From the IMG/VR virus record IMGVR_UViG_3300030450_002944, positions 17,308-81,307 of that record: a stretch of 64,000 nt of DNA; one strand, written 5' to 3'. Positions 4,189 through 59,984 of this stretch are shown in pieces. A program made the translations under genes and the position numbers. Source of the DNA: a virus. The notes beneath the pieces are model-generated. The model saw only the letters and a list, made by a program, of their open reading frames with translations, ran no database searches and was not told the DNA's origin. Position 1 is the first letter of the stretch. Every line of letters begins with the position of its first letter.

Positions 4189-4269
4189 TTAAGTATGCGA
4201 GGGTTGTCAGGGAAATTAGTAGTGAATGAACTGACCACAGAATGTGTTAATCCAACTACCCATACTTAA
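4189..4269 (+). ncRNA. Candidate small structured RNA
   Basis: TTAAGTATG/CATACTTAA closing stem, internal GTCAG/CTGAC stem, followed by a C-run and T7 tract. Confidence 0.5.
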
Positions 4270-4448
4270 CCACCCCCCCTTTTTTTCCTAAAGGAGTTAT
4301 ATGATATATCAGCAGCCACCACCACAGGAGAGGAAATAGGTATATATAAGGAATGGAAAAGGAGAGGAAATGGAGAAGGAAAGGGGTGGGAAATGGAAAG
4401 GAAGGAAGGGGTCAAATGTCGCATAACTCCCCATGTGGTAGGGGGTAC

Positions 4449-4928
4449 TTAAAAGCACTCCCCTGATTGTTGCAATTCAAATATACTAGGTCCACGATCT
4501 CTATGACGTATTAAGCTCTTATAGGCTTCTTGCAATCCCCATTCATAATAGAACGATTGACCAAATGACCTTTTGCACCACACAGTTAAACCTAGCATAT
4601 CGTCAATTATAATTTCTCCCACTTCTCCGAGCCAATGTGCCAAATGATCAGAGATAAGAAAATATTGCATTACTTCTCCCTGTTTCCATTCAATAAGTGC
4701 TTCTTTAAACTCTGGCTCTTCCATGTCTGGTAGGTTTTCAGGGTCATATCCCTGTCTAAAATCTTCTATATCTTCTGATGTTATAGCGTTTTCGGTTGCT
4801 ATATATAAACTCTCGTAACTGTCGTCTTGCTCAAAGAACCTTTCGGCTACTTCGTTTACAAGATATAGTACGTTCTTATCACACCATTTCTTAAAGTCTT
4901 TATCTTCTGCTAATTTGTCGCTATTCAC
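4449..4928 (-). CDS. Hypothetical phage protein
   Basis: 159 aa, GTG start with AAGGAG RBS, own promoter. Confidence 0.8.
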   Translation of the reverse strand: MNSDKLAEDKDFKKWCDKNVLYLVNEVAERFFEQDDSYESLYIATENAITSEDIEDFRQGYDPENLPDMEEPEFKEALIEWKQGEVMQYFLISDHLAHWLGEVGEIIIDDMLGLTVWCKRSFGQSFYYEWGLQEAYKSLIRHRDRGPSIFELQQSGECF

Positions 4929-4963
4929 TTTTTACTCCTTTATTAGTTTTTACTTATATATCA

Positions 4964-4993
4964 ATAATAGCATATATAGGGGGGGTAGGTCAA
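4964..4993 (-). promoter_or_regulatory. sigma70-type promoter next to 18-bp box
   Basis: TTGACC-N18-TATTAT on the minus strand. Confidence 0.7.
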
Positions 4994-5191
4994 CCCCTGA
5001 TATATCCTATAACTCCACCTACTATTATTATATCATATAGGGAAGGGGTCTGTCAAGGGAAAAGGGAAGGAAGGGAAAAGGGAAGGAAGGGGATAGGGGG
5101 ACTGGAGTTATGCGATTATGGGTAGTGGCTCAAAGAGAGAGCCACCACACAATTACGCCAACCACTATTAAGATTTCCAATCAATCCCCTT

Positions 5192-5446
5192 TTACCACAT
5201 AGAGTCAAATGCTTTAACCATGTTAGCCTGTACTTCATACCTAGATGCGTCTACCTGAACGTCTTGACCATCAATTATTACATAATCAATATCATGAGCA
5301 TAGATACTACCAATTTCTGTAGCATAGCCATACACTTTAGCCATTCTGATATTACCTTTTTTGTTGTCCATCATCTCAAACTTCCAACCATTTTTTTGGT
5401 ATCCGACTGTCCCTTTTTTTATGTCATTAGGTTCAATAGTTTTCAT
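5192..5446 (-). CDS. Small hypothetical protein
   Basis: 84 aa, AAGGA RBS, promoter TTGACA-N18-TATACT at 5481-5510. Confidence 0.8.
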   Translation of the reverse strand: MKTIEPNDIKKGTVGYQKNGWKFEMMDNKKGNIRMAKVYGYATEIGSIYAHDIDYVIIDGQDVQVDASRYEVQANMVKAFDSMW

Positions 5447-5501
5447 AGTTCCTTTTTGCTAGTTTTTTCTTTATGTAATAAGTATATCATATTTGATCAC
5501 T

Positions 5502-5666
5502 CTATGTCAACTCAATGTTTACAATTTCTTTGTCTGTTAATTTAATATTGTGTTGCTCATAAAAGTTATCTTTTACATTTTGGATAAATTCTTTTTTGGT
5601 TTCTCCATAATTATTTATCGCAAATGATAATTCTATTTCACAGAACCATTCTTTTTCTTCACTCAT
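5502..5666 (-). CDS. Small hypothetical protein (54 aa)
   Basis: Read manually: MSEEKEWFCEIELSFAINNYG...; AAGGAG RBS; promoter TTGACA-N18-TATACT at 5686-5715. Confidence 0.65.
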   Translation of the reverse strand: MSEEKEWFCEIELSFAINNYGETKKEFIQNVKDNFYEQHNIKLTDKEIVNIELT

Positions 5667-5755
5667 TTTCGTACTCCTTTATTTAAGTATAGCATATTTG
5701 ATCATTCTATGTCAATAGGGATATATCATATAACTCCAAAAAAAATAAATTTAAC

Positions 5756-6057
5756 TAAGCGTGGCGAAGGTGTCAGATTGAATGAAACTCACTTTCAAAC
5801 TTAGACTTACGATATCATGATATGATCGTGCTACATCAGGCTACAACTTCGGCTTTCTATCCTAGGCTAGTGGCGGAAGTGATACATCTGGCTCAACGTC
5901 AGGGAACAGAGGGATCTGCAAGATACTCTATTTCTATTCGTTTATCTGAACTTGTACTAAAAGTTCGTTAACAATTAAGTACAACTGATAGTTTGACAAT
6001 AACCTTCAAAAGTTTCTGTACAGGTTGCGAACCTATGAGCCTACTTAACCACGCTTA
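5756..6057 (-). ncRNA. Candidate large (~300 nt) structured ncRNA
   Basis: TAAGCGTGG/CCACGCTTA closing stem, many internal helices, higher GC, no ORF; downstream of promoter 6185-6214. Confidence 0.6.
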
Positions 6058-6070
6058 TTAAATTGTTAAA

Positions 6071-6177
6071 CAAGATTGATGATCGGTTGTTATAGACCGA
6101 ATTTAATCTGTCCACATTCCCTACTTCGTTGTATTGGTAAAATGTTATTCACATTCATCGTTACTTCCTCAACCTTG
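6071..6177 (-). ncRNA. Candidate ~107 nt structured RNA (or 22-aa peptide leader)
   Basis: CAAGGTTGA/TCAATCTTG closing stem (G-U pair valid only on the minus strand), two internal hairpins, begins at the predicted TSS. Confidence 0.45.
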
Positions 6178-6309
6178 TAATATAAGTATAGCATATTAAA
6201 GAGTGGTAATGCAATACCTTGATATATCATATAACTCCTCTTAAAAAAAGAGGGCAGGTGGGGGAAGGGGAAAAATGAAAAAACCCCAAACCCCTCTTGT
6301 ACCTACCTA

Positions 6310-6546
6310 TTACATTTCCTCAGCCATTGCCCAAAGGATAGGCTCAACTTCACTAGATATCTGTAAATGGAAGTCGCAACACTTTAACCTGTCGTTCATT
6401 TGATCTTTGGAAAAGATTAGAATATCCTTTATGGAAAAGGCTTTCCTATCTTTACAATCAAACCATTGTCGCCAATACCCTTTATCAGAGTCCACTTCAT
6501 AGTGAACATTCTCGTTTCTATATTTAAAAGTTCCTTTAGCTTTCAT
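6310..6546 (-). CDS. Small hypothetical protein
   Basis: GAGGT RBS, coupled to the upstream ORF. Confidence 0.7.
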   Translation of the reverse strand: MKAKGTFKYRNENVHYEVDSDKGYWRQWFDCKDRKAFSIKDILIFSKDQMNDRLKCCDFHLQISSEVEPILWAMAEEM

Positions 6547-6547
6547 C

Positions 6548-6739
6548 TTAACCTCTATTCATTTCTATATATTTTTCATTTAGTTCTGTTCTTATTACAT
6601 CGCAATCATCAGAACACACAACATTATTTCCATAACATTCTGTATGATCTTTTTGATAGTTTTTCCACTCTAAAATTTCATCATCTGTTAGAGTGAAAGA
6701 CTTAGGGTGTTTATGTGAGTTGCTAATCCAAGATATCAT
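6548..6739 (-). CDS. Small hypothetical protein
   Basis: AAGGA RBS; promoter TTGACA-N18-TATAAT near 6769-6798. Confidence 0.7.
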   Translation of the reverse strand: MISWISNSHKHPKSFTLTDDEILEWKNYQKDHTECYGNNVVCSDDCDVIRTELNEKYIEMNRG

Positions 6740-6785
6740 TTTATTCCTTTACTTGTTTCTATACTTATATTATAGCATATTTAAT

Positions 6786-6884
6786 GTAGGCTTGTCAAGT
6801 GTGTCTTGTTTAGATTTACATATAACGACTTGCAAGAGCTTTCAGGATCAGGGAATACTTACTCAACCCCACTTGACTACCTAC
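6786..6884 (-). ncRNA. Candidate ~100 nt structured RNA
   Basis: GTAGG..GTCAAGTG / CACTTGAC..CCTAC closing stem right after promoter 6892-6921; no ORF. Confidence 0.4.
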
Positions 6885-6944
6885 TAAGTATATAATAACA
6901 TATATGAAGTAGTGAAGTCAATACTGGATATATCATATAACTCC

Positions 6945-7002
6945 CATAAAGAATGTGTCCCATAAAGAATGTGTCCAGTAAAGAATGTGTCCAGTAAAGA
7001 AT
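6945..7002. repeat. 16-bp tandem repeat (~3.6 copies)
   Basis: (CA/AG)TAAAGAATGTGTCC repeated, abutting the 18-bp box at 6927-6944. Confidence 0.9.
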
Positions 7003-7072
7003 ACGAGGATTTTTTTCACAAAAAACTTTTCTCCCAAGTCAATGGGCTAGGTGGGCTAGATTTTTAAATCCT

Positions 7073-7210
7073 CTATTGGATGTCGTCTGAAATCTTCAGA
7101 TCAGGAGAGAGGTCATTCCAGTTAAGGATTTCCTCTACTTCTTTATCGGCAGACTCATCATTCCTACCGACACTCATTAGGATTTCATCTATTAGTTCTC
7201 TTAGAGTCAT
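7073..7210 (-). CDS. Small acidic peptide (45 aa)
   Basis: Read manually: MTLRELIDEILMSVGRND...; GGAGGT RBS; own promoter. Confidence 0.65.
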   Translation of the reverse strand: MTLRELIDEILMSVGRNDESADKEVEEILNWNDLSPDLKISDDIQ

Positions 7211-7431
7211 AATAGACCTCCACTTTTTTTGGTTTTGTTTTATCGACCTAATATAAGTATAACATATATTCTTTTTACGTCAAACCCCTACCCCCCATTG
7301 ATATATCATATAACTCCAAAAAATGAGAGTATAGAAAGAAAAAATGTAAAACTTCCTATACTCTCTTAATTGTTAATGTTCTTCACATTTAGGGCAAATA
7401 ATAGTTGAGCCATTTCTTATACAATCGCAAC

Positions 7432-7659
7432 TCATAAGGGTAATTTTCCAGACTCTTTTTTCTGTTCCCACGTTGCCGACTCTATAGCACCTCTGAAAAT
7501 CTGTTCATTAAAGTTTGGGTTATCATCTGCAAATATTTTGCATAATTCTTGGTATAGTATATCAGGGTCTATATATTGAAAACTGCTTGTCGCAGAGTCA
7601 ATAAATTTTATACTGTTTTTCCACACGTCCACAAATTTTATGTAATCTTTTTTAGTCAT
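7432..7659 (-). CDS. Small phage protein (MTKKDY...DNPNFN..F type)
   Basis: AAGGA RBS; own promoter; motif common in small phage early proteins. Confidence 0.8.
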   Translation of the reverse strand: MTKKDYIKFVDVWKNSIKFIDSATSSFQYIDPDILYQELCKIFADDNPNFNEQIFRGAIESATWEQKKESGKLPL

Positions 7660-7762
7660 CTTTTTTTCCTTTTTATTAGTTGATACATTAAGTATAGCAC
7701 ATTAAAGATTATTAATGCAATACCCCCACCCCTATTGATATATCCTATAACTCCAGTTGAAA

Positions 7763-8068
7763 TTAAATGAAATCAACTGAATTAGGTTCTTGTCTAGTTA
7801 TTAGAACTGAATCTTGTTCAAATTTAGTTTTATATTTTAGGGCAACTTTATTAACCACGTTGATATAATTAATATTATTTTTTTCATGAAGGATAGATAC
7901 AACTTTAGTTTTCTCTTTAGTTCCCTTCCAATAACCTGTAATTTCTGATACTGAAAAACCTTCAACTTCATTAGCAAGTTCAGTATCTAGAAAACTATTA
8001 AATTGTTTATCTGATACAACTGACTTATTTTTTATATCAGTTCCAAAATATATTAATGTGTTTATCAT
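7763..8068 (-). CDS. DUF3574-like small protein
   Basis: LIYFG...F.SFLD....GFSV....GYW....E.T......Y..KFEQDSVL pattern. Confidence 0.65.
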   Translation of the reverse strand: MINTLIYFGTDIKNKSVVSDKQFNSFLDTELANEVEGFSVSEITGYWKGTKEKTKVVSILHEKNNINYINVVNKVALKYKTKFEQDSVLITRQEPNSVDFI

Positions 8069-8072
8069 TTTA

Positions 8073-8252
8073 TTACCATACCTTCCGTTCTAGAGTTTGC
8101 TTTATTCTTAGTTCATTAATCTTAGCTTTAGTTAATGGTTTAGGTTTAGATCCATTGCCCTTAACAACTGTTATACATTTTCCATTTTTTCCAATGGGTA
8201 CAATCAGTCTTGACTTACTTCTTTTAACTTGTCTTTTACTTGGTATATTCAT
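8073..8252 (-). CDS. Small basic protein (59 aa)
   Basis: Read manually: MNIPSKRQVKRSKSRLIVPIGKNG...; AAGGA RBS. Confidence 0.6.
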   Translation of the reverse strand: MNIPSKRQVKRSKSRLIVPIGKNGKCITVVKGNGSKPKPLTKAKINELRIKQTLERKVW

Positions 8253-8376
8253 TTTTTTAATCCTTCTTTTTAGTTACTATAATTATTCTATCATTTTATT
8301 TACTACCATGTCAACCCCTGATATATCATATAACTCCCCCGAAAAATAATAAAAATCGGGGGGAGAGAGTAATTAA

Positions 8377-8604
8377 TTAATCGTCAATGTTTGGTTGTTC
8401 CATTCTTGCGATATGGTTATCCACAATGTACCCTGAATATATTTCATCAGAGAGAATGAAAATCTGTTTCCAGAATAACCCTGATTGAGTATCAAGAAAA
8501 TCTTCATCTTCTTTAACACCTGATTTAATAATCGCTAATGCTAAATCGTTGTATCCCTGTGCTATTGCTTGTTCTTTATCTAATCCATTATAATCTGTAG
8601 CCAT
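8377..8604 (-). CDS. Small hypothetical protein
   Basis: AAGGAG RBS; followed by hairpin 8334-8365. Confidence 0.75.
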   Translation of the reverse strand: MATDYNGLDKEQAIAQGYNDLALAIIKSGVKEDEDFLDTQSGLFWKQIFILSDEIYSGYIVDNHIARMEQPNIDD

Positions 8605-8712
8605 TTTTTAAATCTCCTTTGATTTAATTTATTTATTTATTTAACCTATAATTATTGTCTCATGGATTTGATTTTTTTACAACCCCCATGATATATCCTA
8701 TAACTCCTCTGC

Positions 8713-8937
8713 TTATTCGTACACCTCCCCTAATAAGTCGCCGTCTGCTTCTTGAGGTGTATCAAAATCTACAACCTCATAATTTTCTATGGCGTGTTTC
8801 TGTACTGTAGGTATGCCCTGATCCTCGCAAGCCTGCAACCTTTTTAAAGGCGTTTTGTAGCCGTCATCATCTGCCTGATACGCAGACTCCCAGTCCCAGT
8901 TCTCAGCCCAAAATTTTAAGTTCTCTAAGTTATCCAT
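8713..8937 (-). CDS. Small acidic hypothetical protein
   Basis: AAGGAG RBS; own TTGACA promoter. Confidence 0.75.
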   Translation of the reverse strand: MDNLENLKFWAENWDWESAYQADDDGYKTPLKRLQACEDQGIPTVQKHAIENYEVVDFDTPQEADGDLLGEVYE

Positions 8938-9073
8938 TTTTTCTCCTTAACTAAATTTAACTATACCTATAGTATATCACATATTCAAAACTTGTCAACC
9001 CTGTGCCACTCGGCTCAACTAGGGATATATCACATAACTCCACTTCAGCCGAAAAAAAACTGAAGTGAGTATA

Positions 9074-9217
9074 TTAATCGTTCTGAAAATATTCAATCAT
9101 AAGTTTAAAGTGTTCCCTATCTAGTTTTTCAACTGGGACATGTTGCAATAATTCCATTAACATATTAACAATAGTATTTAATTTTATATCTATTCGTTCT
9201 AAGTCTAATTTATCCAT
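9074..9217 (-). CDS. Small hypothetical protein (47 aa)
   Basis: Read manually: MDKLDLERIDIKLNTIVNML...; AAGGAG RBS; followed by hairpin 9041-9067. Confidence 0.6.
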   Translation of the reverse strand: MDKLDLERIDIKLNTIVNMLMELLQHVPVEKLDREHFKLMIEYFQND

Positions 9218-9409
9218 TTTATTATTTCTCCTTTAGTTGTTTATTGTTTTAATTTAATTTTTTATTTATTTTTTATTTCTCCCTTCTACTTAATATTACG
9301 TGTAATAAAGGGTAAAAAACGTCAGAGAAACATCAGAAAAACGTCAGAGTTTTTTATATTCAAAAAACAAACTGAAGTAAGTATATTAAGATTATGTATA
9401 ATAAAATTT

Positions 9410-9640
9410 TCATTTTAAATCTCCTATAATAATTTGAAAATCCATATTCCCAGAGTTCTCATCACCTCCCACAATAGTGATGAAATCCTTTTGAGAAGGA
9501 TCATCAATATCAAAATAGTGTGACTCCACCCAGTAGCAGTAACCACACATAACCACTTCATCACCATCTACATCAACCACCAATCCCCAAGATGCTATTT
9601 GGTTTATTATTAAGTTGCAGAAGTTACATTCTTTATTCAT
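9410..9640 (-). CDS. Small Zn-binding hypothetical protein
   Basis: CNFC...CGYC; AAGGAG RBS. Confidence 0.7.
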   Translation of the reverse strand: MNKECNFCNLIINQIASWGLVVDVDGDEVVMCGYCYWVESHYFDIDDPSQKDFITIVGGDENSGNMDFQIIIGDLK

Positions 9641-9817
9641 TTTTTTAAATCTCCTTTATTTGTTTTTTGGGCATAGTATCCCGTATTTATAATATTAGCA
9701 CATTTGGGGTCAAAAGGAGTTATATGATATATCCCGTACCACTCCCATTTATTTACCTCAGCCGTAAACGAACTGGAGTAAATAAATTAAAATGATATAT
9801 AATAAAATTTTCATCAG

Positions 9818-10018
9818 TTACGCCTTTCTATCTACAATTGTTGCTGAATATTTTCTACTCATTAAAAATAATTTAGAACCATTAGGGCTAGTTATTTCCA
9901 AATCTCCAAAATCATCATAATCATCTTTATCAACTGACTTTTCTATCGCTTCTTTTTTTGATTTAGCCACAACCGTTTTGTAAGCAATCTGGGTTTCTTT
10001 GATTAAGTATTCTTTCAT
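9818..10018 (-). CDS. Small hypothetical protein (V.AKS..EA.E. motif)
   Basis: AAGGAG RBS; motif common in small phage proteins. Confidence 0.7.
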   Translation of the reverse strand: MKEYLIKETQIAYKTVVAKSKKEAIEKSVDKDDYDDFGDLEITSPNGSKLFLMSRKYSATIVDRKA

Positions 10019-10193
10019 TTTTTTCTCCTTTTGTTATTTAACCTTATATAGATATTTTACAATACCACCCCCCTTATTGCAACCCCTTTGGAGTTATATG
10101 ATATATCCTTTGTATTTTTATTATTTACAATGTGGCTTACATGTAATAGAATAATATTAGATTAAATAAATAAGTAAACCGAAAGGCGAAAAA

Positions 10194-10622
10194 ATGACTA
10201 AACAAGAAATTAAAGCGTGGGTGAAATTACAAGATAATATCAACATGCAAAAAACATTTGATACTATCACTACTAACTTACGCCCACTAGATAAAGAAAT
10301 CCTTAGTAGATTTATTATAGAAAAGGACACTATAAAAAATATTACTGAATGGCTAAATTCAGAATTAGGTCTAAATTTAACTACTTTTAAAACTTCCAAA
10401 ATTATTAAGACAATTCAAAGATACTTAGTAGCTTTATATCATGACACACCACATCATATTAGAGATGCCCGAAAAATGGGAATGTCTGTTACAAGATTCG
10501 TACCTACAACCAATGCTCCCGCTACTCCACATATAATAGTGGAGCAGAAAAAATACATTGGGGACATCTGTATTTCTAGAACTATCAACATCAAAAGAAG
10601 CAAGAGCGGTTATTGGAAGTAA
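10194..10622 (+). CDS. Putative HTH DNA-binding protein (sigma region-4-like N-terminal half)
   Basis: LRPLDKEILSRFIIEKDTIKNITEWL...TTFKTSKIIKTIQRYL resembles a sigma70 region 4 HTH; divergent from the box array. Confidence 0.45.
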   Translation: MTKQEIKAWVKLQDNINMQKTFDTITTNLRPLDKEILSRFIIEKDTIKNITEWLNSELGLNLTTFKTSKIIKTIQRYLVALYHDTPHHIRDARKMGMSVTRFVPTTNAPATPHIIVEQKKYIGDICISRTINIKRSKSGYWK

Positions 10623-11799: not shown

Positions 11800-12222
11800 A
11801 TGTATACATATAAATGCACAGTTACAAAAGTAATAGATGGAGACACTATTGATGTTGATATCCAATTAGGGTTTAATGTTATTCTATATAAACAAAGAAT
11901 AAGATTACATGGGATAGACACGCCAGAATCTAGAACTAGGAATTTGGAAGAAAAGGCTAGAGGATTACTTTCAAAAGATTTTATGAAGAAATTGGCTCCT
12001 GTCGGATCTTCCATTACTTTAAAGTCCTTAGAAAAAGGAAAATTTGGTAGGATATTAGGTATTATTTGGCAAGAAGGGGATGAATGGGAAACTGATTCTC
12101 CAATAAACGACTTAATGATTGAAAACTATCATGCAGTTCCATATACTGGACAAAACAAGAACGATGTAGAATCTTTACATGAAGCTAATAAACTCAAGCT
12201 AATTGAAAAGGGAATCTTGTAA
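11800..12222 (+). CDS. Thermonuclease (SNase-like) nuclease
   Basis: VIDGDT, RIRLHGIDTPE, GKFGRILG motifs. Confidence 0.9.
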   Translation: MYTYKCTVTKVIDGDTIDVDIQLGFNVILYKQRIRLHGIDTPESRTRNLEEKARGLLSKDFMKKLAPVGSSITLKSLEKGKFGRILGIIWQEGDEWETDSPINDLMIENYHAVPYTGQNKNDVESLHEANKLKLIEKGIL

Positions 12223-12223
12223 A

Positions 12224-15200
12224 ATGCCAGACATTGATGCAATGACAGAAAAGTTAATGAAGGATCCTGATTTTCAGGCTAAGATAGGTAAAACTAAGCG
12301 TGAAACTGCTCAAGAAGAGGCTACTCAAAGAGCACATCAACATAGAAAAAATTCTATGGCATTAGCATTAGGTAATGAGAGTAAGACTGCTGTAGAACAT
12401 TTAAGTGAATATGCTAAATTAGAGGCTCAACGAAAAGAGATTGATGAAATGGTTTTCGGTGTTCCTACTGAAGAAATTCGAGATAAGATGGCACGTCCTC
12501 TCAATGTGGTTGATATAGACATAAATGATCTTACTTTGAGTCCACCACCAGCTAATACAAGTACTCAGGTTAAAGAAGAATTAGAGACCATCATTGATAA
12601 ACATCTTCAAACAAAAGAAGATACAGATAATTTTGAATTTGAGATTGCAAAGCCTGCTGAAATACAAGATTTAGATATTTTAAAATCTTTCATTAAATTA
12701 GCTGAAGAATTGGGACTTAGTGATGATATTACTAAAAAGAAATTAGAAGTAATAAAAGATGATTCTGCTACTATTGTTTTAAATCTAAAATATTATTTCA
12801 ATAGACCTAGACCTGAACAATTAATGGACTATCATGGAGTAGATTTTAAACCTGCAGATTTCAAAACTTCTGATACTCCTGCTTATCCATCTGGACATGC
12901 CTTTCAAGGTACATTAATTGCATTGATTTTATCTGAAGTGTTTCCACAACATGCAGATTCGTTTATGAAACTTGGTGAATCTATTGGTGAGAATAGAGTA
13001 ATTTTCGGTGTTCATTATCCTTCAGACCACGCCGCTGGTATAGAATTAGCAAAACAGGTTTTTCCTTATGTAAATTTTGAGAAATTAGATTTTAAACCCA
13101 TTCCACAGGAATCCCAACCTTTAGAAAAAGACTTACCTAATATAGAAAAAGCTACAGGTATAGAAATTGCAGCTACAGGAGCAGCTCTAGCATCTGGAGG
13201 AATAGCATTATGGGATTTATATCAAGCTTTTAAGAAAAATAAAAAATTAAAGCAGGAAGATAAAGTAGAATTAAACGAAGCTTTAGAGGAAAATGAAGAT
13301 AGTTTAAAAGAAACAAAAATTGATATAAAAGAAGATGAATTACCAGATTTAGAAAATGCTGATAATGTAGATGAATTAATAAGTGGTGTAAAAAATCCAG
13401 ACAAAGCTGAACCAATTATTGAGAAAGTTAGGAAAAAAAGATGGGATTCTGGACTAAGTAAAGAAGACGCAGCTAAAATTAGAGCTGAACGTGAGGCTAA
13501 AAGAAAGGATGCTGCTACTCCTTTACCTAAAATTGGAGAAGGTGTAGAAGAACCAAAAGGTGAAGAACCTAAAAAAGTAGACGCTGAAAAGAAAGAGTCT
13601 GAACAAGTAGAGGAGAAGAAAGAGCCTCGAAAAATTCCTTTAGATATCCATAGTAAAAAAACTCTTATTGATAACATTGGTAAATTAGTAAATCATATTC
13701 CTACTCATAGAGGAAAAAATGATAGTGATACTTCTAGAGGAAAATTTAATGCTTCTCAAATAAATCCAGATACATCATCTTTAGATCCTGTAGTACATCA
13801 ATCATTTGAAAATTGGAGTACCCGAAACCCAGAAGATTTACATGATCATTTAAATTCCCTATCTGAAGAGAAATTAAGAGCTATAGCTTCAGCGTTAGGA
13901 GAACAAGCTAACCAAGTCGCTCCGGGTAGTGAATTGAATCCAGTAGGTTCATCAACAAGATTAGGTATTTTAGGTAGAATGCTTAGAGACGATAAATCAG
14001 GTAAAAAAGAAATAGAAGGTGTATCTAATAAGGATTACCAAACAGCTTTAAGAGATTCTTTAAGTAGAGCTGTAAATTCTAATCACGATATAACAGTTCC
14101 GGGTGGTGAAGAAGAAATTGTAGAAGCTGCTAATGAGAATTTAGAAGAAGAAACAAGACCTTCACCTGAAGAAGAGGCTAGAAGAAAATATGAAGCGGAA
14201 CAAAAAGCAAAACGAGATGCTGAAGAGGCAGATAAAAAAGAAGAGGAATCTAAAGATAAAAAAACAGGGGGTCCTTCTCCTTTTGCAGTAGAAGAAGAGA
14301 GTAAACCAATTAATTTAGATGAAGCTGATTTAGGTAAGATTAAACTTGGTGACTCTAAAGAACTTACTAATTTAAATGGTTATCTATCAGATGCTAAATA
14401 TGGTGGAATAAAAGGTCAAGAATTTACTAATGAAGATGGTACAGTAAAATCAAGATACATGCATGGTTTACAAGAATATATTAAAAAGAATCCTACTTCA
14501 GCTAAAATTGGTACTGATGGTTCAGTAGAGTTTGATCCTGAATACATAGGTAATTTAACAAAACACTTCTCAGAAAACCATGATGATGCTGCTATGAGTA
14601 GATTATGGGAGAAAAACTATAGACATAAAGGAGCAAGTGATACATCTTCTATTGGATATGGTGATTATTCTCCATCAAAAGAAGCAAGAGGGGCTATACT
14701 TTCTAGAAAAGAAAAAATGGATAAAGTTATGGAACAACAATTTGGAGAAGATTGGGAAGATTCTAATGACTTTGATGTGAGAGCTGAAAGAGAACATCTT
14801 CAATCAATGGATTCAAAAACATTTAATAAACATTTTGATACTGCATATTTAAAACCATTGAGATCTCAGAGACAAAAAGATAGGACTGCAGGTATAAAAG
14901 CAGAGACCCCCAAAGATCCTAATAAAGAACGATGGAATTTAAAGGATTCTAGTCCTGATGAAGCCTATGAAAAAGCTAAAGAAATGATAGCTCATTCACT
15001 TGAACATAGTGAAGAACATGGTGGAAAAGGTTTAGACGAAAAGACTGTTTCTCATATGAATAAACAACTATCAGCTGCTCGTAAAGCAATGGGAGCTGAT
15101 AATATTAAAAAACTTAACCAAGAAATCAAAGATGGTAGTATCCAACCTACTAAAGCTGAAGAGCCTAAAGAGGATAAAGATTACGAAGGATCAGATATTC

Positions 15201-15898
15201 CAGATGAAGCAAGAGGATATGGAGATGCTCCTGAAGGTGTTAAGACATATAAAGGACCATCAGGTGGAGTATTTTATGATAAGAGGGAAGCAAAAAAGAA
15301 AGATAGTGAAGGTGGGGGTGACGGAACATCTGATTCTGGTGATACGGGAGACTCAGGTGAAAAAATGCCTCCACCATCTATACCAGAAGATTCTAAAATA
15401 TCTTCAGATGAACCTGTTGGAGATAAAGCATCTGCATGGGGAGATAAAATCGGATCTGCTGTAAGTGCTTTAGGTAGACTTACTGGAAAAGCAGGTAAAG
15501 AAGATAGAAAAAAATTAATAGCTGATGCGGCTAAGACATTTAAAGAAGCTGGTAAAGCAGTTGGAAAAGAAGGTAAAAGAGCTTTTAATGAAATTGGATC
15601 AGCAATGGCTGAAGAAATAGCTAGATCTAGAGGTTATGGTGAGGCTCAAGCCAAAAATGCTAAACTTAAATATCAATTACAAGCTGCTGCCAGAGGTATT
15701 CCAATAGCAGGTAAAATAATTCCTAAAACTGAAGGATATAAAGGAGAATCAAAGGCTGGAGTCAGAGGGGCAAAACAAGAAACAAGAGCTAAAGAACAAG
15801 CAGCTTATGAGAAATTAACCTATGGAGACAAAGTAGATTTTGAAGTTTCTAAGAGTAATTTAAAAAAACTACAGGATTTTACTAAAAATAGAGTATAA
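12224..15898 (+). CDS. Large low-complexity protein with PAP2/haloperoxidase-like phosphatase domain; probably head-associated
   Basis: KYYFNRPRP, AYPSGHA, RVIFGVHYPSD motifs; ATG at 12224 follows the upstream stop (track start 12203). Confidence 0.75.
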   Translation: MPDIDAMTEKLMKDPDFQAKIGKTKRETAQEEATQRAHQHRKNSMALALGNESKTAVEHLSEYAKLEAQRKEIDEMVFGVPTEEIRDKMARPLNVVDIDINDLTLSPPPANTSTQVKEELETIIDKHLQTKEDTDNFEFEIAKPAEIQDLDILKSFIKLAEELGLSDDITKKKLEVIKDDSATIVLNLKYYFNRPRPEQLMDYHGVDFKPADFKTSDTPAYPSGHAFQGTLIALILSEVFPQHADSFMKLGESIGENRVIFGVHYPSDHAAGIELAKQVFPYVNFEKLDFKPIPQESQPLEKDLPNIEKATGIEIAATGAALASGGIALWDLYQAFKKNKKLKQEDKVELNEALEENEDSLKETKIDIKEDELPDLENADNVDELISGVKNPDKAEPIIEKVRKKRWDSGLSKEDAAKIRAEREAKRKDAATPLPKIGEGVEEPKGEEPKKVDAEKKESEQVEEKKEPRKIPLDIHSKKTLIDNIGKLVNHIPTHRGKNDSDTSRGKFNASQINPDTSSLDPVVHQSFENWSTRNPEDLHDHLNSLSEEKLRAIASALGEQANQVAPGSELNPVGSSTRLGILGRMLRDDKSGKKEIEGVSNKDYQTALRDSLSRAVNSNHDITVPGGEEEIVEAANENLEEETRPSPEEEARRKYEAEQKAKRDAEEADKKEEESKDKKTGGPSPFAVEEESKPINLDEADLGKIKLGDSKELTNLNGYLSDAKYGGIKGQEFTNEDGTVKSRYMHGLQEYIKKNPTSAKIGTDGSVEFDPEYIGNLTKHFSENHDDAAMSRLWEKNYRHKGASDTSSIGYGDYSPSKEARGAILSRKEKMDKVMEQQFGEDWEDSNDFDVRAEREHLQSMDSKTFNKHFDTAYLKPLRSQRQKDRTAGIKAETPKDPNKERWNLKDSSPDEAYEKAKEMIAHSLEHSEEHGGKGLDEKTVSHMNKQLSAARKAMGADNIKKLNQEIKDGSIQPTKAEEPKEDKDYEGSDIPDEARGYGDAPEGVKTYKGPSGGVFYDKREAKKKDSEGGGDGTSDSGDTGDSGEKMPPPSIPEDSKISSDEPVGDKASAWGDKIGSAVSALGRLTGKAGKEDRKKLIADAAKTFKEAGKAVGKEGKRAFNEIGSAMAEEIARSRGYGEAQAKNAKLKYQLQAAARGIPIAGKIIPKTEGYKGESKAGVRGAKQETRAKEQAAYEKLTYGDKVDFEVSKSNLKKLQDFTKNRV

Positions 15899-56594: not shown

Positions 56595-59500
56595 ATGACT
56601 TGGTTTGAAAAACAAGGAAGAGAAGGTTTAATTCCTAAAAAAGTTTCTGAAACTGTCCATCCAAAAGAAGGGCTTCCATTTGAAAGACTTAGTACAGTAT
56701 ATGTCAAGCCTGAAGTCCCAGACTTTGTAAATGATTGGTTAGAAGATTTTGATTCAAAAACACCAGTCTATTTAGTTGGAGGTTCAGTTAGAGATTCATT
56801 ATTAGGAGAAACCCCAAAAGATATAGATGTAATTACTTTCCAACCAAAAGAAGATATAGAAGCGAGTCTAAAAAATTCTAAAACGAAATTCTATCAAGGT
56901 GGAAAAAATTTACCTAACTTACTTACTGCCAATCTAGGCAAGGATCAATTAATTGATATTGTAAGTATGGATACAGATATAGGATCTGAGCTAGTAAGAA
57001 GAGATTTCACAATAAATGCTATGGCTCAAAGACCAGACGGTGAGATTATAGATCCATTTGGGGGACGAAAAGATTTAAAAGAAGGTGTTTTAAGATCTCC
57101 AAAAGATGATAGTGATAAGGTATTTGAAGATGATCCTTTAAGAATGCTTAGAGCAGCTAGATTTATTGGTGATTTAAACTTAAAACCTCATAGTTCTGTA
57201 ACTCAAGCTATCCAAAAACATAAAGATTTATTATCAAATCTTCCAAAAGAACGTATAGGTATGGAATTTGGAAGAATATTATATTCTAAAGATCCAATAT
57301 CTGGATTAAAATTCTTAAAAGATAATGACATGTTAAAATATATTGACCCAGCTTTACAAAGAATGGTTGGATTTGTTCAAAATATAGAAGGGCATGACTA
57401 TGATGTTTGGAATCACACACTTAAATCCTTAGAACATCATATAACTAAAGATAAAAAAAGTCCAGACTTAGCTACTAGACTAGGAATTTTATATCACAAT
57501 GTAGGTAAGCCTGCAACAGCTAATTCTAATAATAGCAATTTTGATAATTATGAATCTATTGGAGCACAAATTGTAGAAGAAAGCCTTAATTCTTTACGAC
57601 TACCTTCTGATATGATAGATACTGTTAGAAAGTTAGTACAACACCATACTTCTGCAAAGACTGCAAAAACTGAAGGTGATCATAGAAGAGTACAACTGAA
57701 GTTAAGACATGACTTAAACAAACTTAATTATGTAGCAACTGCTCATGAAGTAGGAAAAGAAGGTAATGTAAATGCCGACACTTCTCATATAGTTGAATTT
57801 CAAGACACTATTGATAAATTAGATCCTGTATCAGCTGAAGGTGAGGGTTCTTCAAAACTTTCCCCATTATCTGGAAAAGAGATTATGGACGCATTAAATA
57901 TTGTTCCTAATAAAAAAGGTGGGGGTGAAAGAATTGGCAAGATAAAAGACTTCTTAGACAATCTAGTTGTTGAAGGTGAACTAAAACAATCTGATAAAGA
58001 AGGAGCTTTAGAAAGAGCTAAACAGTATCATTCTACATTCACTATGAAGTCTACTGATATTTTAAAAGGTTGGCTAAATATATTGAAAGACGAGGATATT
58101 ACAGGTGAGGCATTTGCAGGTCATACAGAAGATGCAGATGGTAATTTAGTATTTGATGCAAGTAAAAAGAAGCAAAAACAAGAAGTAGCTGATTGGCATG
58201 CTAATTTTGAAAAGCAGAAAAGACTTGATGCGGGATTAATTCCAAAAAAACTTACTGATAAAAATGGTATTGAGGTTACACGTTGGATAAACCCAAAAAA
58301 AGATGATGTGGAAATGGATAAAAATTCCCCAAATTTTGCAATGAGAGATTTAAAACATACTTATGGCACTAGTAATGCGAAAGAATTATGGGAAAAATAT
58401 AAAAAACCTGTTCTAGATAAAAAAACCGGAGAGCATTTAAAAGATGAAAAAACTGGTGAATTAAAGTATACACATAGTATTACACTTCCTCATCCAGAGG
58501 ATTCAAAAAGTTCACATTATCATGGAGAAGGTAGAAAAGGTAAAAAACTTGGCAGTTCTGAGAAATGGATGAACGCTGATAATATACATTTCGATGATGA
58601 TCCTTTTTCATTATATCCAATAAAAGCAACAAATGAAAAGGGGAAGATAATAAAAGATAAAGGTCCAACATATGATCATCCAGAACATACAGCTATGAGA
58701 TGGAAAACAAAAGCAGCTGGAGTCACAGCCATATATATGAGAAAAGATCCGTTAAATGATGCTTTAGAAGCAGAATATAAAAAAGATAATCCAGCCTTAG
58801 AGGCAATAATGACAGGTTTAATGTTTAAAAGTGGGATTAGAGTAGGTAATCCTGCCGATGCTAAAGAATTATTAGCAGCTCTAGATAAACCTGCTTCATT
58901 TGGAGCCTCTTCTTTACAAAAACAACATCTTAGGATTGATGGGGATAAGATTTACCATAAATTTCCGGGTAAGAAAAAGACGATGCAAGAAGCTCCCGAA
59001 CCTATAGTTGATGCAAATTTAGCAAAAGCATTGACTAAGATAATGAAAAACAAAAAAGATGATGATTTTATATTTCAAAAAGATAATGGGGTGATTGTTA
59101 ATGAAGGAAGCACTCAAAAATGGCATAATAAAGCAATGAAAATTCATCCGGATAATCCAGTTACTAATCATAATTTTAGAACTTTCGTTGGAACAAGTAT
59201 GGCAGTAAATAATGTAGCTGACTTTCTTAATAATCCAGAGGTTATAAAAGAGCTTGATAAAACAAATAAACTTCCAATTAAAACTAAAGGCGAGTTTAAG
59301 GATTTTACACATAGAATGGCAATTGATTCAGCTAAACAATTAAGTCATGTTAGTGGAGATGGTAACAAAATCAATCCACAGATAACTTTAGATCATTATA
59401 TAAAGCCAGATACTTTTACATATAAACAATCAGATGGTAAGAATGTATTAATAGAATCCGCAATTGATGATGATAGCACGAAAATATCTAAAGAATATCA

Positions 59501-59984
59501 AGACTTTATGGAAAAAGCTACAGGTAAGAGAAGACTAACTAAAGAAGATATGATTTTAAAAGATCCTGAAAATATGACAAAATCTTTAGATGGTAAAGAA
59601 TTCGACCCTACTAGAAAAAAGGAAAAAGATATAGATACATATTTTGAAAACAGGAAAGAAAAAGAAGAAGATAGGAACTATGGGCTAGATAAAATCCCAG
59701 CTCATATGAGACCTAGACCTAAATATTTCGCAAAAACATGGATTGAAGATTTAGCAGAGAAGGGCTTCCAAGCTCCCATAGTTAAATCTATTAGTCCAGA
59801 TGGATCCAAAATGTGGTTCATTGAAGGAGGTACAGACTTTGTAGCATCATTAGGAGCAAGTGGTGTTGGACATGTTGAGAAAGCAACTTTCCCACCATTA
59901 CCATCCAATGCAACAAATAAAATAAGTTATGCACCTTCAGCTTCCAATAAAAGACGGGAGGAAGATACCGATGAAGAAGAATAA
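56595..59984 (+). CDS. Polyprotein: class II tRNA nucleotidyltransferase-like + degenerate HD + topoisomerase IB
   Basis: VGGSVRD, DID, RRDFTINA, DDPLRMLRAARF; then IRVGN, FPGKK, NFRT, LSH, HYI. Confidence 0.85.
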   Translation: MTWFEKQGREGLIPKKVSETVHPKEGLPFERLSTVYVKPEVPDFVNDWLEDFDSKTPVYLVGGSVRDSLLGETPKDIDVITFQPKEDIEASLKNSKTKFYQGGKNLPNLLTANLGKDQLIDIVSMDTDIGSELVRRDFTINAMAQRPDGEIIDPFGGRKDLKEGVLRSPKDDSDKVFEDDPLRMLRAARFIGDLNLKPHSSVTQAIQKHKDLLSNLPKERIGMEFGRILYSKDPISGLKFLKDNDMLKYIDPALQRMVGFVQNIEGHDYDVWNHTLKSLEHHITKDKKSPDLATRLGILYHNVGKPATANSNNSNFDNYESIGAQIVEESLNSLRLPSDMIDTVRKLVQHHTSAKTAKTEGDHRRVQLKLRHDLNKLNYVATAHEVGKEGNVNADTSHIVEFQDTIDKLDPVSAEGEGSSKLSPLSGKEIMDALNIVPNKKGGGERIGKIKDFLDNLVVEGELKQSDKEGALERAKQYHSTFTMKSTDILKGWLNILKDEDITGEAFAGHTEDADGNLVFDASKKKQKQEVADWHANFEKQKRLDAGLIPKKLTDKNGIEVTRWINPKKDDVEMDKNSPNFAMRDLKHTYGTSNAKELWEKYKKPVLDKKTGEHLKDEKTGELKYTHSITLPHPEDSKSSHYHGEGRKGKKLGSSEKWMNADNIHFDDDPFSLYPIKATNEKGKIIKDKGPTYDHPEHTAMRWKTKAAGVTAIYMRKDPLNDALEAEYKKDNPALEAIMTGLMFKSGIRVGNPADAKELLAALDKPASFGASSLQKQHLRIDGDKIYHKFPGKKKTMQEAPEPIVDANLAKALTKIMKNKKDDDFIFQKDNGVIVNEGSTQKWHNKAMKIHPDNPVTNHNFRTFVGTSMAVNNVADFLNNPEVIKELDKTNKLPIKTKGEFKDFTHRMAIDSAKQLSHVSGDGNKINPQITLDHYIKPDTFTYKQSDGKNVLIESAIDDDSTKISKEYQDFMEKATGKRRLTKEDMILKDPENMTKSLDGKEFDPTRKKEKDIDTYFENRKEKEEDRNYGLDKIPAHMRPRPKYFAKTWIEDLAEKGFQAPIVKSISPDGSKMWFIEGGTDFVASLGASGVGHVEKATFPPLPSNATNKISYAPSASNKRREEDTDEEE

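Follow-up and report, generated by a model that had tools for sequence, protein, structure and literature searches.

We analysed a 64,000-base-pair (bp) stretch of a marine phage genome (hereafter the window), consisting of bases 17308-81307 of the 81,307-bp IMG/VR record IMGVR_UViG_3300030450_002944, whose completeness was judged to be 99%. Region 4266-10018 of the window is the genome's sole leftward gene block, all remaining genes being on the plus strand, and it is punctuated by an 18-bp repeat that we call the box. The box recurs between small genes in an almost invariant form, it is associated with sigma70-type promoters at helically phased distances, and many of the junctions at which whole units have been shuffled among related phages lie at it. 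With modest confidence, we favour the explanation that the box is a regulatory protein-binding site of one class of early promoters and, at the same time, a hotspot of homologous recombination.

A search with the exact pattern GGAGTTATRKGATATATC gave 12 matches between window positions 4293 and 10107, against 0.05 expected from shuffled sequence. The minus strand carries nine copies and the plus strand three (4293, 9716 and 10090), start-to-start distances range from 334 to 721 bp, and all copies are placed between the conserved open reading frames (ORFs). An earlier inspection of the letters alone (the sequence-only reading) had reported the same copies, spacing and inversions. Its statement that the box occurs nowhere else in the window holds for the whole 81,307-bp record, in which a search allowing up to one mismatch found no copy beyond the 12. 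The box is bipartite, with a left half GGAGTTAT, a spacer of 0-2 nucleotides (nt) and a right half formed by the palindrome GATATATC. The spacer is usually 2 nt long (AT in 81 contexts, GT in 11, AG in 5, AC in 3 and TA in 1), lengths of 1 or 0 nt are rare, and the boxes of the complete relative G001 include length variants of 16 and 17 nt. The left half occurs 14 times in the genome, every time within the array: 12 occurrences belong to the boxes and the other two to half-boxes, GGAGTTATGCGA, which are mutually inverted and bracket the last array gene. A second class of site, GGAGTTATGCGRC, adjoins C/T-rich tracts around this last gene; a distant relative (L172) has it there too. The box is A/T-rich and does not have the imperfect inverted-repeat structure of an attC site.

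Multiple copies of the box were present in three IMG/VR contigs, one of them the 82.4-kb G001. Marine surveys, TARA among them, added about 25 metagenome contigs with multiple copies, and hits that occurred singly elsewhere were chance matches. These relatives share 66-87% identity with the window in alignable DNA. After dereplication, about 30 arrays of related marine phage contigs yielded 79 distinct box contexts. Information content across these contexts is 2.0 bits at 16 of the box's 18 positions, compared with 0-0.5 bits immediately outside, and on either side identity falls within 1-2 nt to the background level. The earlier description of a near-invariant box between divergent flanks holds. 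The divergent contig L172, in which the last array gene shows 55% identity, has a single variant, GGAGTTAT-A-GATATC, in two copies; a 15-mer variant box occurred more than once solely in contig L172/L231. None of 185,579 bacterial and archaeal species genomes contained a repeated box, the 45 hits being isolated chance matches. Since single chance hits were all that these genomes yielded, the scan offers no clue to the host and no sign of a host regulon. Searches for more distant relatives started from the flanking 162-amino-acid (aa) protein, a 1231-aa protein and an alignment of the last array gene, and they led back to the few contigs already found; a full-text literature search for the box motif gave no match.

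The box is associated with promoters. A sigma70-like promoter, called at a score of 9 or more of 12-13, stood beside 75 of the 79 boxes, compared with 21% per side at random array positions. It followed the GATATATC end in 62 boxes, and in 23 it lay on the opposite strand, past the GGAG end; promoters were present on both sides of ten boxes and on neither side of four. Forward distances from the box to the -35 hexamer fall into three classes of 3-7, 14-16 and 25-26 nt with almost nothing between them, and the spacer sequences are unrelated to one another. For 35 independent spacer-plus-promoter families, the periodicity of these distances gave a Rayleigh R that peaked at 0.80 for a period of 10.5 bp (p~1.5e-10). 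Most boxes precede the first host-type promoter of a unit, and each unit has its own promoter. Three strong array promoters (5056, 5510 and 6798) have no box directly upstream. A run of G residues following the box was considered as part of it, resembling a T7-like start site, and was dropped because the same G run precedes the -35 of box-less promoters.

The genome also contains a second early array, which is transcribed rightward and occupies 10.5-21.5 kb of the whole record (G000), that is, the plus strand of the window up to position 4200. Its 12 very strong promoters form a 59-nt repeat family, TAGGGTA-TTGACT-18-TATAAT with TG, and all of them are box-less. Since these equally strong early promoters lack it, the box marks one of two sets of strong host-type promoters. 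Placement on one face of the helix, a half-site structure and specificity for one promoter class are together what would be expected of a protein-binding control site. The tolerance of spacers of 0-2 nt and the occurrence of GGAGTTAT alone fit domain-wise recognition by a protein better than they fit a strict recombination core.

We infer from these patterns that a protein binds the box and that binding affects transcription. An interaction with RNA polymerase is suggested by the helical phasing. A putative factor bound on one helix face relative to the -35 hexamer would touch or block the polymerase, and it could also stop read-through from the upstream unit in the style of an operator or stoperator. 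The likely outcome would be that the leftward block is switched on and off together, apart from the box-less rightward early promoters. Several observations weigh against a control site of this kind. The invariance of the box is stricter than is usual for sets of operators and could reflect concerted evolution. The box is used in either orientation, as the 23 promoters past the GGAG end show, which is odd for an asymmetric site, and spacers of 0-2 nt alter the relative helix face of its two halves. The terminal box has no promoter, the 142-aa neighbour of the last box is not conserved, and about 40 phage proteins scanned against Pfam and PHROGs gave no match to a helix-turn-helix or regulator family. 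The sequence-only reading had offered a dedicated regulon for a host-takeover or anti-defence module as one of two possibilities. What survives of that proposal is the presence of promoters at 75 of the 79 boxes, the helical phasing and the restriction to one promoter set; in the form in which it was stated, it does not stand.

The search for a binding protein also covered the neighbours of the array. The 142-aa ORF driven from the last box (10194-10622, plus strand) was considered as the box binder and rejected, since it is itself a movable box-promoter unit that lies inside the array and in the array direction in L084 and L119 and is absent from the complete G001. The conserved 162-aa neighbour was considered as an HNH nuclease, an assignment that was dropped because its His residues are not conserved. 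AlphaFold models were too poor for searching (predicted local distance difference test scores of 52 for the last array gene and 34 for the 162-aa neighbour), and a search of the ESM Atlas returned nothing.

If the box were read by a component of the host, it could act as a constitutive promoter enhancer, through an UP-element-like contact with the alpha subunit of RNA polymerase or as a site for a nucleoid protein. It would then boost the earliest promoters and would not be a switch under phage control. At the modal distance of 5 nt the A/T-rich core of the box spans approximately -42 to -54, which is the position of an UP element, and the further distance classes lie one and two helical turns away. 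These promoters must presumably also fire before any phage protein has been made, which a host reader would accommodate. We nevertheless consider an enhancer unlikely. UP elements and nucleoid-protein sites are degenerate, so that invariant ends containing G and C would not be expected; the 12 rightward promoters are equally strong without the box; the exact box is not repeated in the 185,579 species genomes scanned; and function in either orientation is atypical of UP elements.

About equally improbable, in our judgement, is that the box has neither a protein partner nor a regulatory role, and that it is a junction sequence riding along with the promoters and kept identical by gene conversion and unequal crossing-over. 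The near-total identity of the box within and between genomes, the presence of the same variant in both L172 copies and the abundant recombination among units would all follow from concerted evolution of this type. Conversion tracts, however, would homogenise the adjoining bases as well, and identity drops within 1-2 nt of the box. Nor does this account explain why distances to the -35 are phased when the 35 spacers are unrelated, and the box is unchanged across phages in which the neighbouring promoters have diverged.

Comparison of the arrays showed that their units have been extensively rearranged, the same small gene families appearing in differing orders and orientations. A 78-aa gene (family f10, 6310-6546 in the window) is found at the far left array edge in G001 and in TARA relatives, an 84-aa gene (f5, 5192-5446) is inverted in all related arrays but L090, which is near-identical to the window, and a 75-aa gene (f2, 8377-8604) has at least five different left neighbours. 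We counted junctions at which alignments abut without being collinear, obtaining 86 from 14 arrays. The box was touched by 47 of these (55%, compared with 6% expected from position), a count that has to be read in the knowledge that alignments tend to end at the box because it is the only sequence common to all units. A further 19 junctions lay within 40 nt, and the modal overlap of the two alignments was 18-19 nt, which is the box itself.

Because of this alignment-end bias, closely related pairs were compared. L121 and L050 are 93% identical and differ by exactly one unit (f19) plus one box. The single box of L050 has a left flank matching one L121 box and a right flank matching the next box at 98%, so the difference between the two is a clean box-to-box gain or loss of a cassette. 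L114 and L106 (96% identical) differ by a unit deletion in which the crossover took place in similar promoters and an inverted box was left before the next gene. Flipping of a box by itself between the same two genes was considered as well and set aside, since crossovers between similar promoters, as in L114 and L106, explain the arrangement instead. The window and L090 (98.7% identical) differ by a 208-nt gene insertion that ends 13 nt outside a box on the right and at a stop codon on the left: in L090 (101-308), an extra ORF of about 55 aa with its own hairpin replaces the 83 nt that lie between the 66-aa gene and the 9716 box in the window (about 9740-9820). This extra ORF is a recent gene gain that was not mediated by the box. 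As a control, we compared the box-less rightward array among G000, G001 and G003 and found that it too is extensively rearranged, with several junctions at its own repeated promoters. The sequence-only reading had named breakpoints inside the box as a sign of recombination; with the bias noted above, 47 junctions touch it, and other breakpoints fall in promoter homology or at a stop codon.

With an identical box and similar promoters every 0.3-0.7 kb, general homologous recombination could act between copies, and it would delete, insert, reorder or invert whole promoter-gene-terminator units. The shuffling of a box-less array, the breakpoints within promoters and the UvsX-like recombinase encoded by the phage make homologous recombination between repeats the simplest account, with no need for a site-specific system. 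It is on these grounds that we infer homologous rather than site-specific recombination.

We regard as decidedly unlikely that the box is a dedicated site-specific recombination site of an integron-like array, at which a phage enzyme cuts and rejoins. Such a site would account for the strict invariance of the box, for the bounding of units by boxes at both ends with the promoterless terminal box included, and for the precise box-to-box indel and the 55% of junctions at boxes. An enzyme is conceivable as well, since the phage encodes a type IB topoisomerase (TopIB) core related to tyrosine recombinases. This core, the only tyrosine-recombinase-like signal in the genome, lies about 46 kb from the array in a 1129-aa protein (56595-59984, plus strand) that begins with a CCA-adding enzyme/poly(A) polymerase head and an HD domain (residues ~58-364) and carries the TopIB core at residues ~735-877. 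The core matches PF01028 at 32 bits and, weakly, the Deinococcus TopIB 2f4q, and the protein is kept in G001; a fusion of a CCA-adding enzyme with TopIB is unusual for a phage. Poxvirus TopIB acts at CCCTT-type targets, and the box contains none. No integrase or resolvase gene was found in the phage genome. In addition, the box-less rightward array is shuffled too, recent breakpoints lie in promoter homology (L114/L106) or, in G000/L090, at a stop codon and 13 nt away from a box, spacer-length variants are unusual for a crossover core, and helical phasing to the -35 would have no role. Of the integron-like array suggested by the sequence-only reading, the exchange of payloads at the box is retained and the likeness to an integron is not supported. 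There is a slim chance, marginally smaller again, that an unrecognised box-specific enzyme, with the CCA-adding-enzyme/TopIB fusion as the candidate, excises and inserts self-expressing counter-defence cassettes. If true, this would constitute integron-like gene capture in a lytic marine phage without a classical integrase, and only if a box-specific enzyme turns up is there a new principle here.

Least probable of all is that the box serves as the promoter of an RNA polymerase encoded by the phage, or that it is a signal in the RNA, for instance for processing: length and invariance resemble promoters of single-subunit RNA polymerases, 62 of the 79 copies point along the genes and G runs are frequent after the box, but none of the large phage proteins was recognised as an RNA polymerase, the G run is general to the sigma70 promoters of this phage with or without a box, length variants occur within the box, inverted copies would fire into terminators, and an RNA signal would fail in one of the two orientations.

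The units that the boxes separate share a common anatomy. Read on the minus strand, a hairpin or a run of T residues comes first in a unit and the box second; then follow a sigma70-type promoter whose -10 is extended (TG), a Shine-Dalgarno sequence and one or two small ORFs, which in one unit are replaced by an ORF-free conserved RNA. This is the anatomy that had been described earlier, with the corrections that the 4293 box lacks a promoter and that three promoters lack a box. We folded 11 unit-end stretches, 10 of which abut a box. Seven of these ten have a stable hairpin ending a few nucleotides from the box, in some cases overlapping its first G residues, and the other three box boundaries are without a hairpin; the eleventh stretch, 3' of the 84-aa gene, also forms one.

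At the left end of the array, the terminal box (4293-4310, plus strand) is inverted relative to the array and, by pattern match and promoter scan, promoterless on both sides. A half-box GGAGTTATGCGA (4419-4430, minus strand) followed by a C/T-rich tract (~4327-4415) lies 3' of the last array gene, with the same layout in L172. The last gene itself (4449-4928, minus strand) encodes 159 aa, belongs to family f4, stands at the array end in 17 related arrays and gave no above-threshold family match. It is preceded, in the direction of transcription, by a minus-strand box at 4999-5016, whose promoter TTGACC-18-TATTAT begins 5 nt downstream; a second, consensus promoter (5056-5027, minus strand) is situated just upstream of this box. 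The inverted half-box GGAGTTATGCGA (5104-5115, plus strand) adjoins another C/T-rich tract at 5040-5100. On the minus strand these C/T-rich, G-poor tracts are approximately 70-90 nt long, rich in CCTTCC/CCCTT and contained in 4327-4440 and 5040-5115, each beside a GGAGTTATGCGA half-box. In the distant relative L172 (760-935), half-box and tract are likewise combined 3' of the corresponding homologue. The tracts might be candidate Rho-loading (rut-like) stretches where leftward and rightward transcription converge.

All features from here to the inverted box at 9716 are on the minus strand. The unit at 5192-5666 contains a 54-aa ORF (5502-5666), an internal promoter (5510-5481) and the 84-aa ORF of family f5 noted above, and is preceded by the box at 5720-5737 with promoter TTGACA-18-TATACT beginning 4 nt downstream. 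Next comes the ORF-free conserved RNA unit (5738-6190), about 430-450 nt long and the unit most widely shared among arrays, which is driven by promoter TTGCAT-18-TATACT beginning 6 nt downstream of the box at 6221-6238. RNAalifold on 11 homologues predicted 92 pairs in this RNA, seven of them with compensatory changes and including a long-range closing helix, and Rfam gave no match. The unit probably represents a structured phage RNA of a new kind. The two ORFs at 6310-6739 encode 63 aa (6548-6739) and 78 aa (family f10), with an internal consensus promoter (6798-6769) before them and a box at 6927-6944 whose promoter, TTGACT-18-TATTAT, begins 5 nt downstream. Directly upstream of the 6927 box, four tandem repeats of about 16 nt (GGACACATTCTTTAYK, 6945-7010) replace the hairpin.

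The 45-aa ORF unit at 7073-7210 belongs to the box at 7300-7317, where promoter TTGACG-16-TATACT begins 16 nt downstream and a strong hairpin (-20.6 kcal/mol, z -5.9) is found immediately upstream. A 75-aa ORF (7432-7659) of family f1, present in 20 arrays, follows the box at 7737-7754, with promoter TTGCAT-18-TATACT beginning 16 nt downstream. The unit at 7763-8252 combines a 59-aa ORF (8073-8252, family f3) with a 101-aa DUF3574 protein (7763-8068); its box at 8320-8337 has promoter TTGACA-18-TAGAAT beginning 5 nt downstream and an upstream hairpin that overlaps the first G residues of the box. The DUF3574 match scored 56 bits, similarity to the S-adenosylmethionine lyase family was weak and sub-threshold, and an anti-restriction function is possible for this payload.

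The acidic 75-aa ORF of family f2 (8377-8604), which is present in 17 arrays, has its box at 8690-8707 with a weak promoter, TTGTAA-17-GACAAT, beginning 7 nt downstream. A 74-aa ORF of family f20 (8713-8937) follows the box at 9024-9041, a GT spacer variant with promoter TTGACA-16-TATACT 25 nt downstream and a -35-like TTGAGC at 6 nt. The unit at 9074-9640 holds a 76-aa ORF (9410-9640, family f19) and a 47-aa ORF (9074-9217). Its box (9716-9733) is inverted, on the plus strand, and the minus-strand promoter TTGACC-16-TATAAA begins 2 nt past the GGAG end. The 66-aa ORF of family f84 (9818-10018, minus strand) completes the leftward genes, and the last box (10090-10107, plus strand) is also inverted and lies between divergent promoters, one on the minus strand at 10082-10054 and one on the plus strand at 10124-10152, 16 nt from the GATATATC end.

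Elsewhere in the genome we identified a family A DNA polymerase, a DnaB-like helicase, the UvsX-like recombinase, a ribonucleotide reductase, a terminase, a portal protein and tail proteins. The 1231-aa protein (12203-15898, plus strand), which starts the long rightward block, contains a PAP2 (acid phosphatase/lipid phosphatase) domain at residues 191-280. A megablast search of the isolate collection found no close isolated-phage relative, and the best polymerase match was below 29% identity. The sequence is present in marine metagenome runs of more than 12 studies; small shares of its words also occurred in three RNA runs, which does not amount to evidence of expression. The phage is not T4-like in size or gene content and represents an unclassified, apparently lytic 81-kb marine lineage. 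Payload proteins other than the DUF3574 protein had no family match in Pfam or PHROGs, and Rfam and tRNA scans of the array gave none. Judging from their position, size and promoters, the payloads are probably host-takeover or counter-defence genes. Searches of metagenomes with the 18-mer could recover small early genes of this lineage, and the same invariant, phase-locked sequence could be used as a probe for its putative binding protein. If the binder is a phage protein, the system would amount to a compact switch by which two sets of host-type early promoters are kept apart.

Several known systems resemble the array in part. Like an integron, it is a linear series of small unrelated payloads split by a recurring site, with a content that differs among relatives. 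It is nevertheless not an integron: no integrase gene was found, there is no attI/attC structure, each unit has its own promoter instead of a single common one, and breakpoints are not restricted to the site. The operators of the P1 C1 repressor are 17-bp asymmetric sites at many dispersed promoters, used in either orientation, and they overlap promoters of a temperate plasmid prophage. The box is likewise an asymmetric site of this size class (17-18 bp) that occurs at many promoters in either orientation, with the difference that it lies upstream of the -35 and is phased to it. Stoperators of Cluster A mycobacteriophages, bound by the L5 repressor (PMC9283540, PMC6550527), are also numerous short, asymmetric, highly conserved sites, located in promoter regions and in short gaps between genes; most are co-oriented with transcription, and their domain-wise recognition fits the bipartite box. 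Stoperators differ in being 13-mers spread genome-wide in a temperate phage with a known repressor, whereas the box, an 18-mer, occurs only within a single 6-kb block, about one quarter of its copies are inverted, and the phage is apparently lytic.

The closest parallel is provided by the promoter-early stem-loops (PeSLs) of T4-type phages, composites of a stem-loop and an early promoter that lie between orphan genes, recombine, shuffle self-expressing modules and form mini-circles (Arbiol et al., 2010, PMC2839356; Comeau et al., 2014, PMC4122927). The sequence-only reading had not recognised the array as a described element; in kind it has a precedent in these terminator/promoter cassettes of T4-type phages, which behave alike. 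In both systems a stem-loop terminator is combined with a strong sigma70-like early promoter that has an A/T-rich upstream part, and the combination is repeated between small orphan genes in plastic regions of the genome. In both, indels and replacements among relatives have their junctions within the repeat, and what moves is a whole, self-expressing unit. The two differ in lineage, the present phage being non-T4, and in the repeat itself: PeSLs are looser and about 100 bp long, whereas the box is a discrete, near-invariant, bipartite 18-mer outside the promoter hexamers and phased to the -35. Mini-circles have been demonstrated for PeSLs. The array thus works like a PeSL without being a member of that set, and the modular shuffling of self-contained regulatory cassettes extends beyond the T4 superfamily to a widespread uncultured marine lineage.

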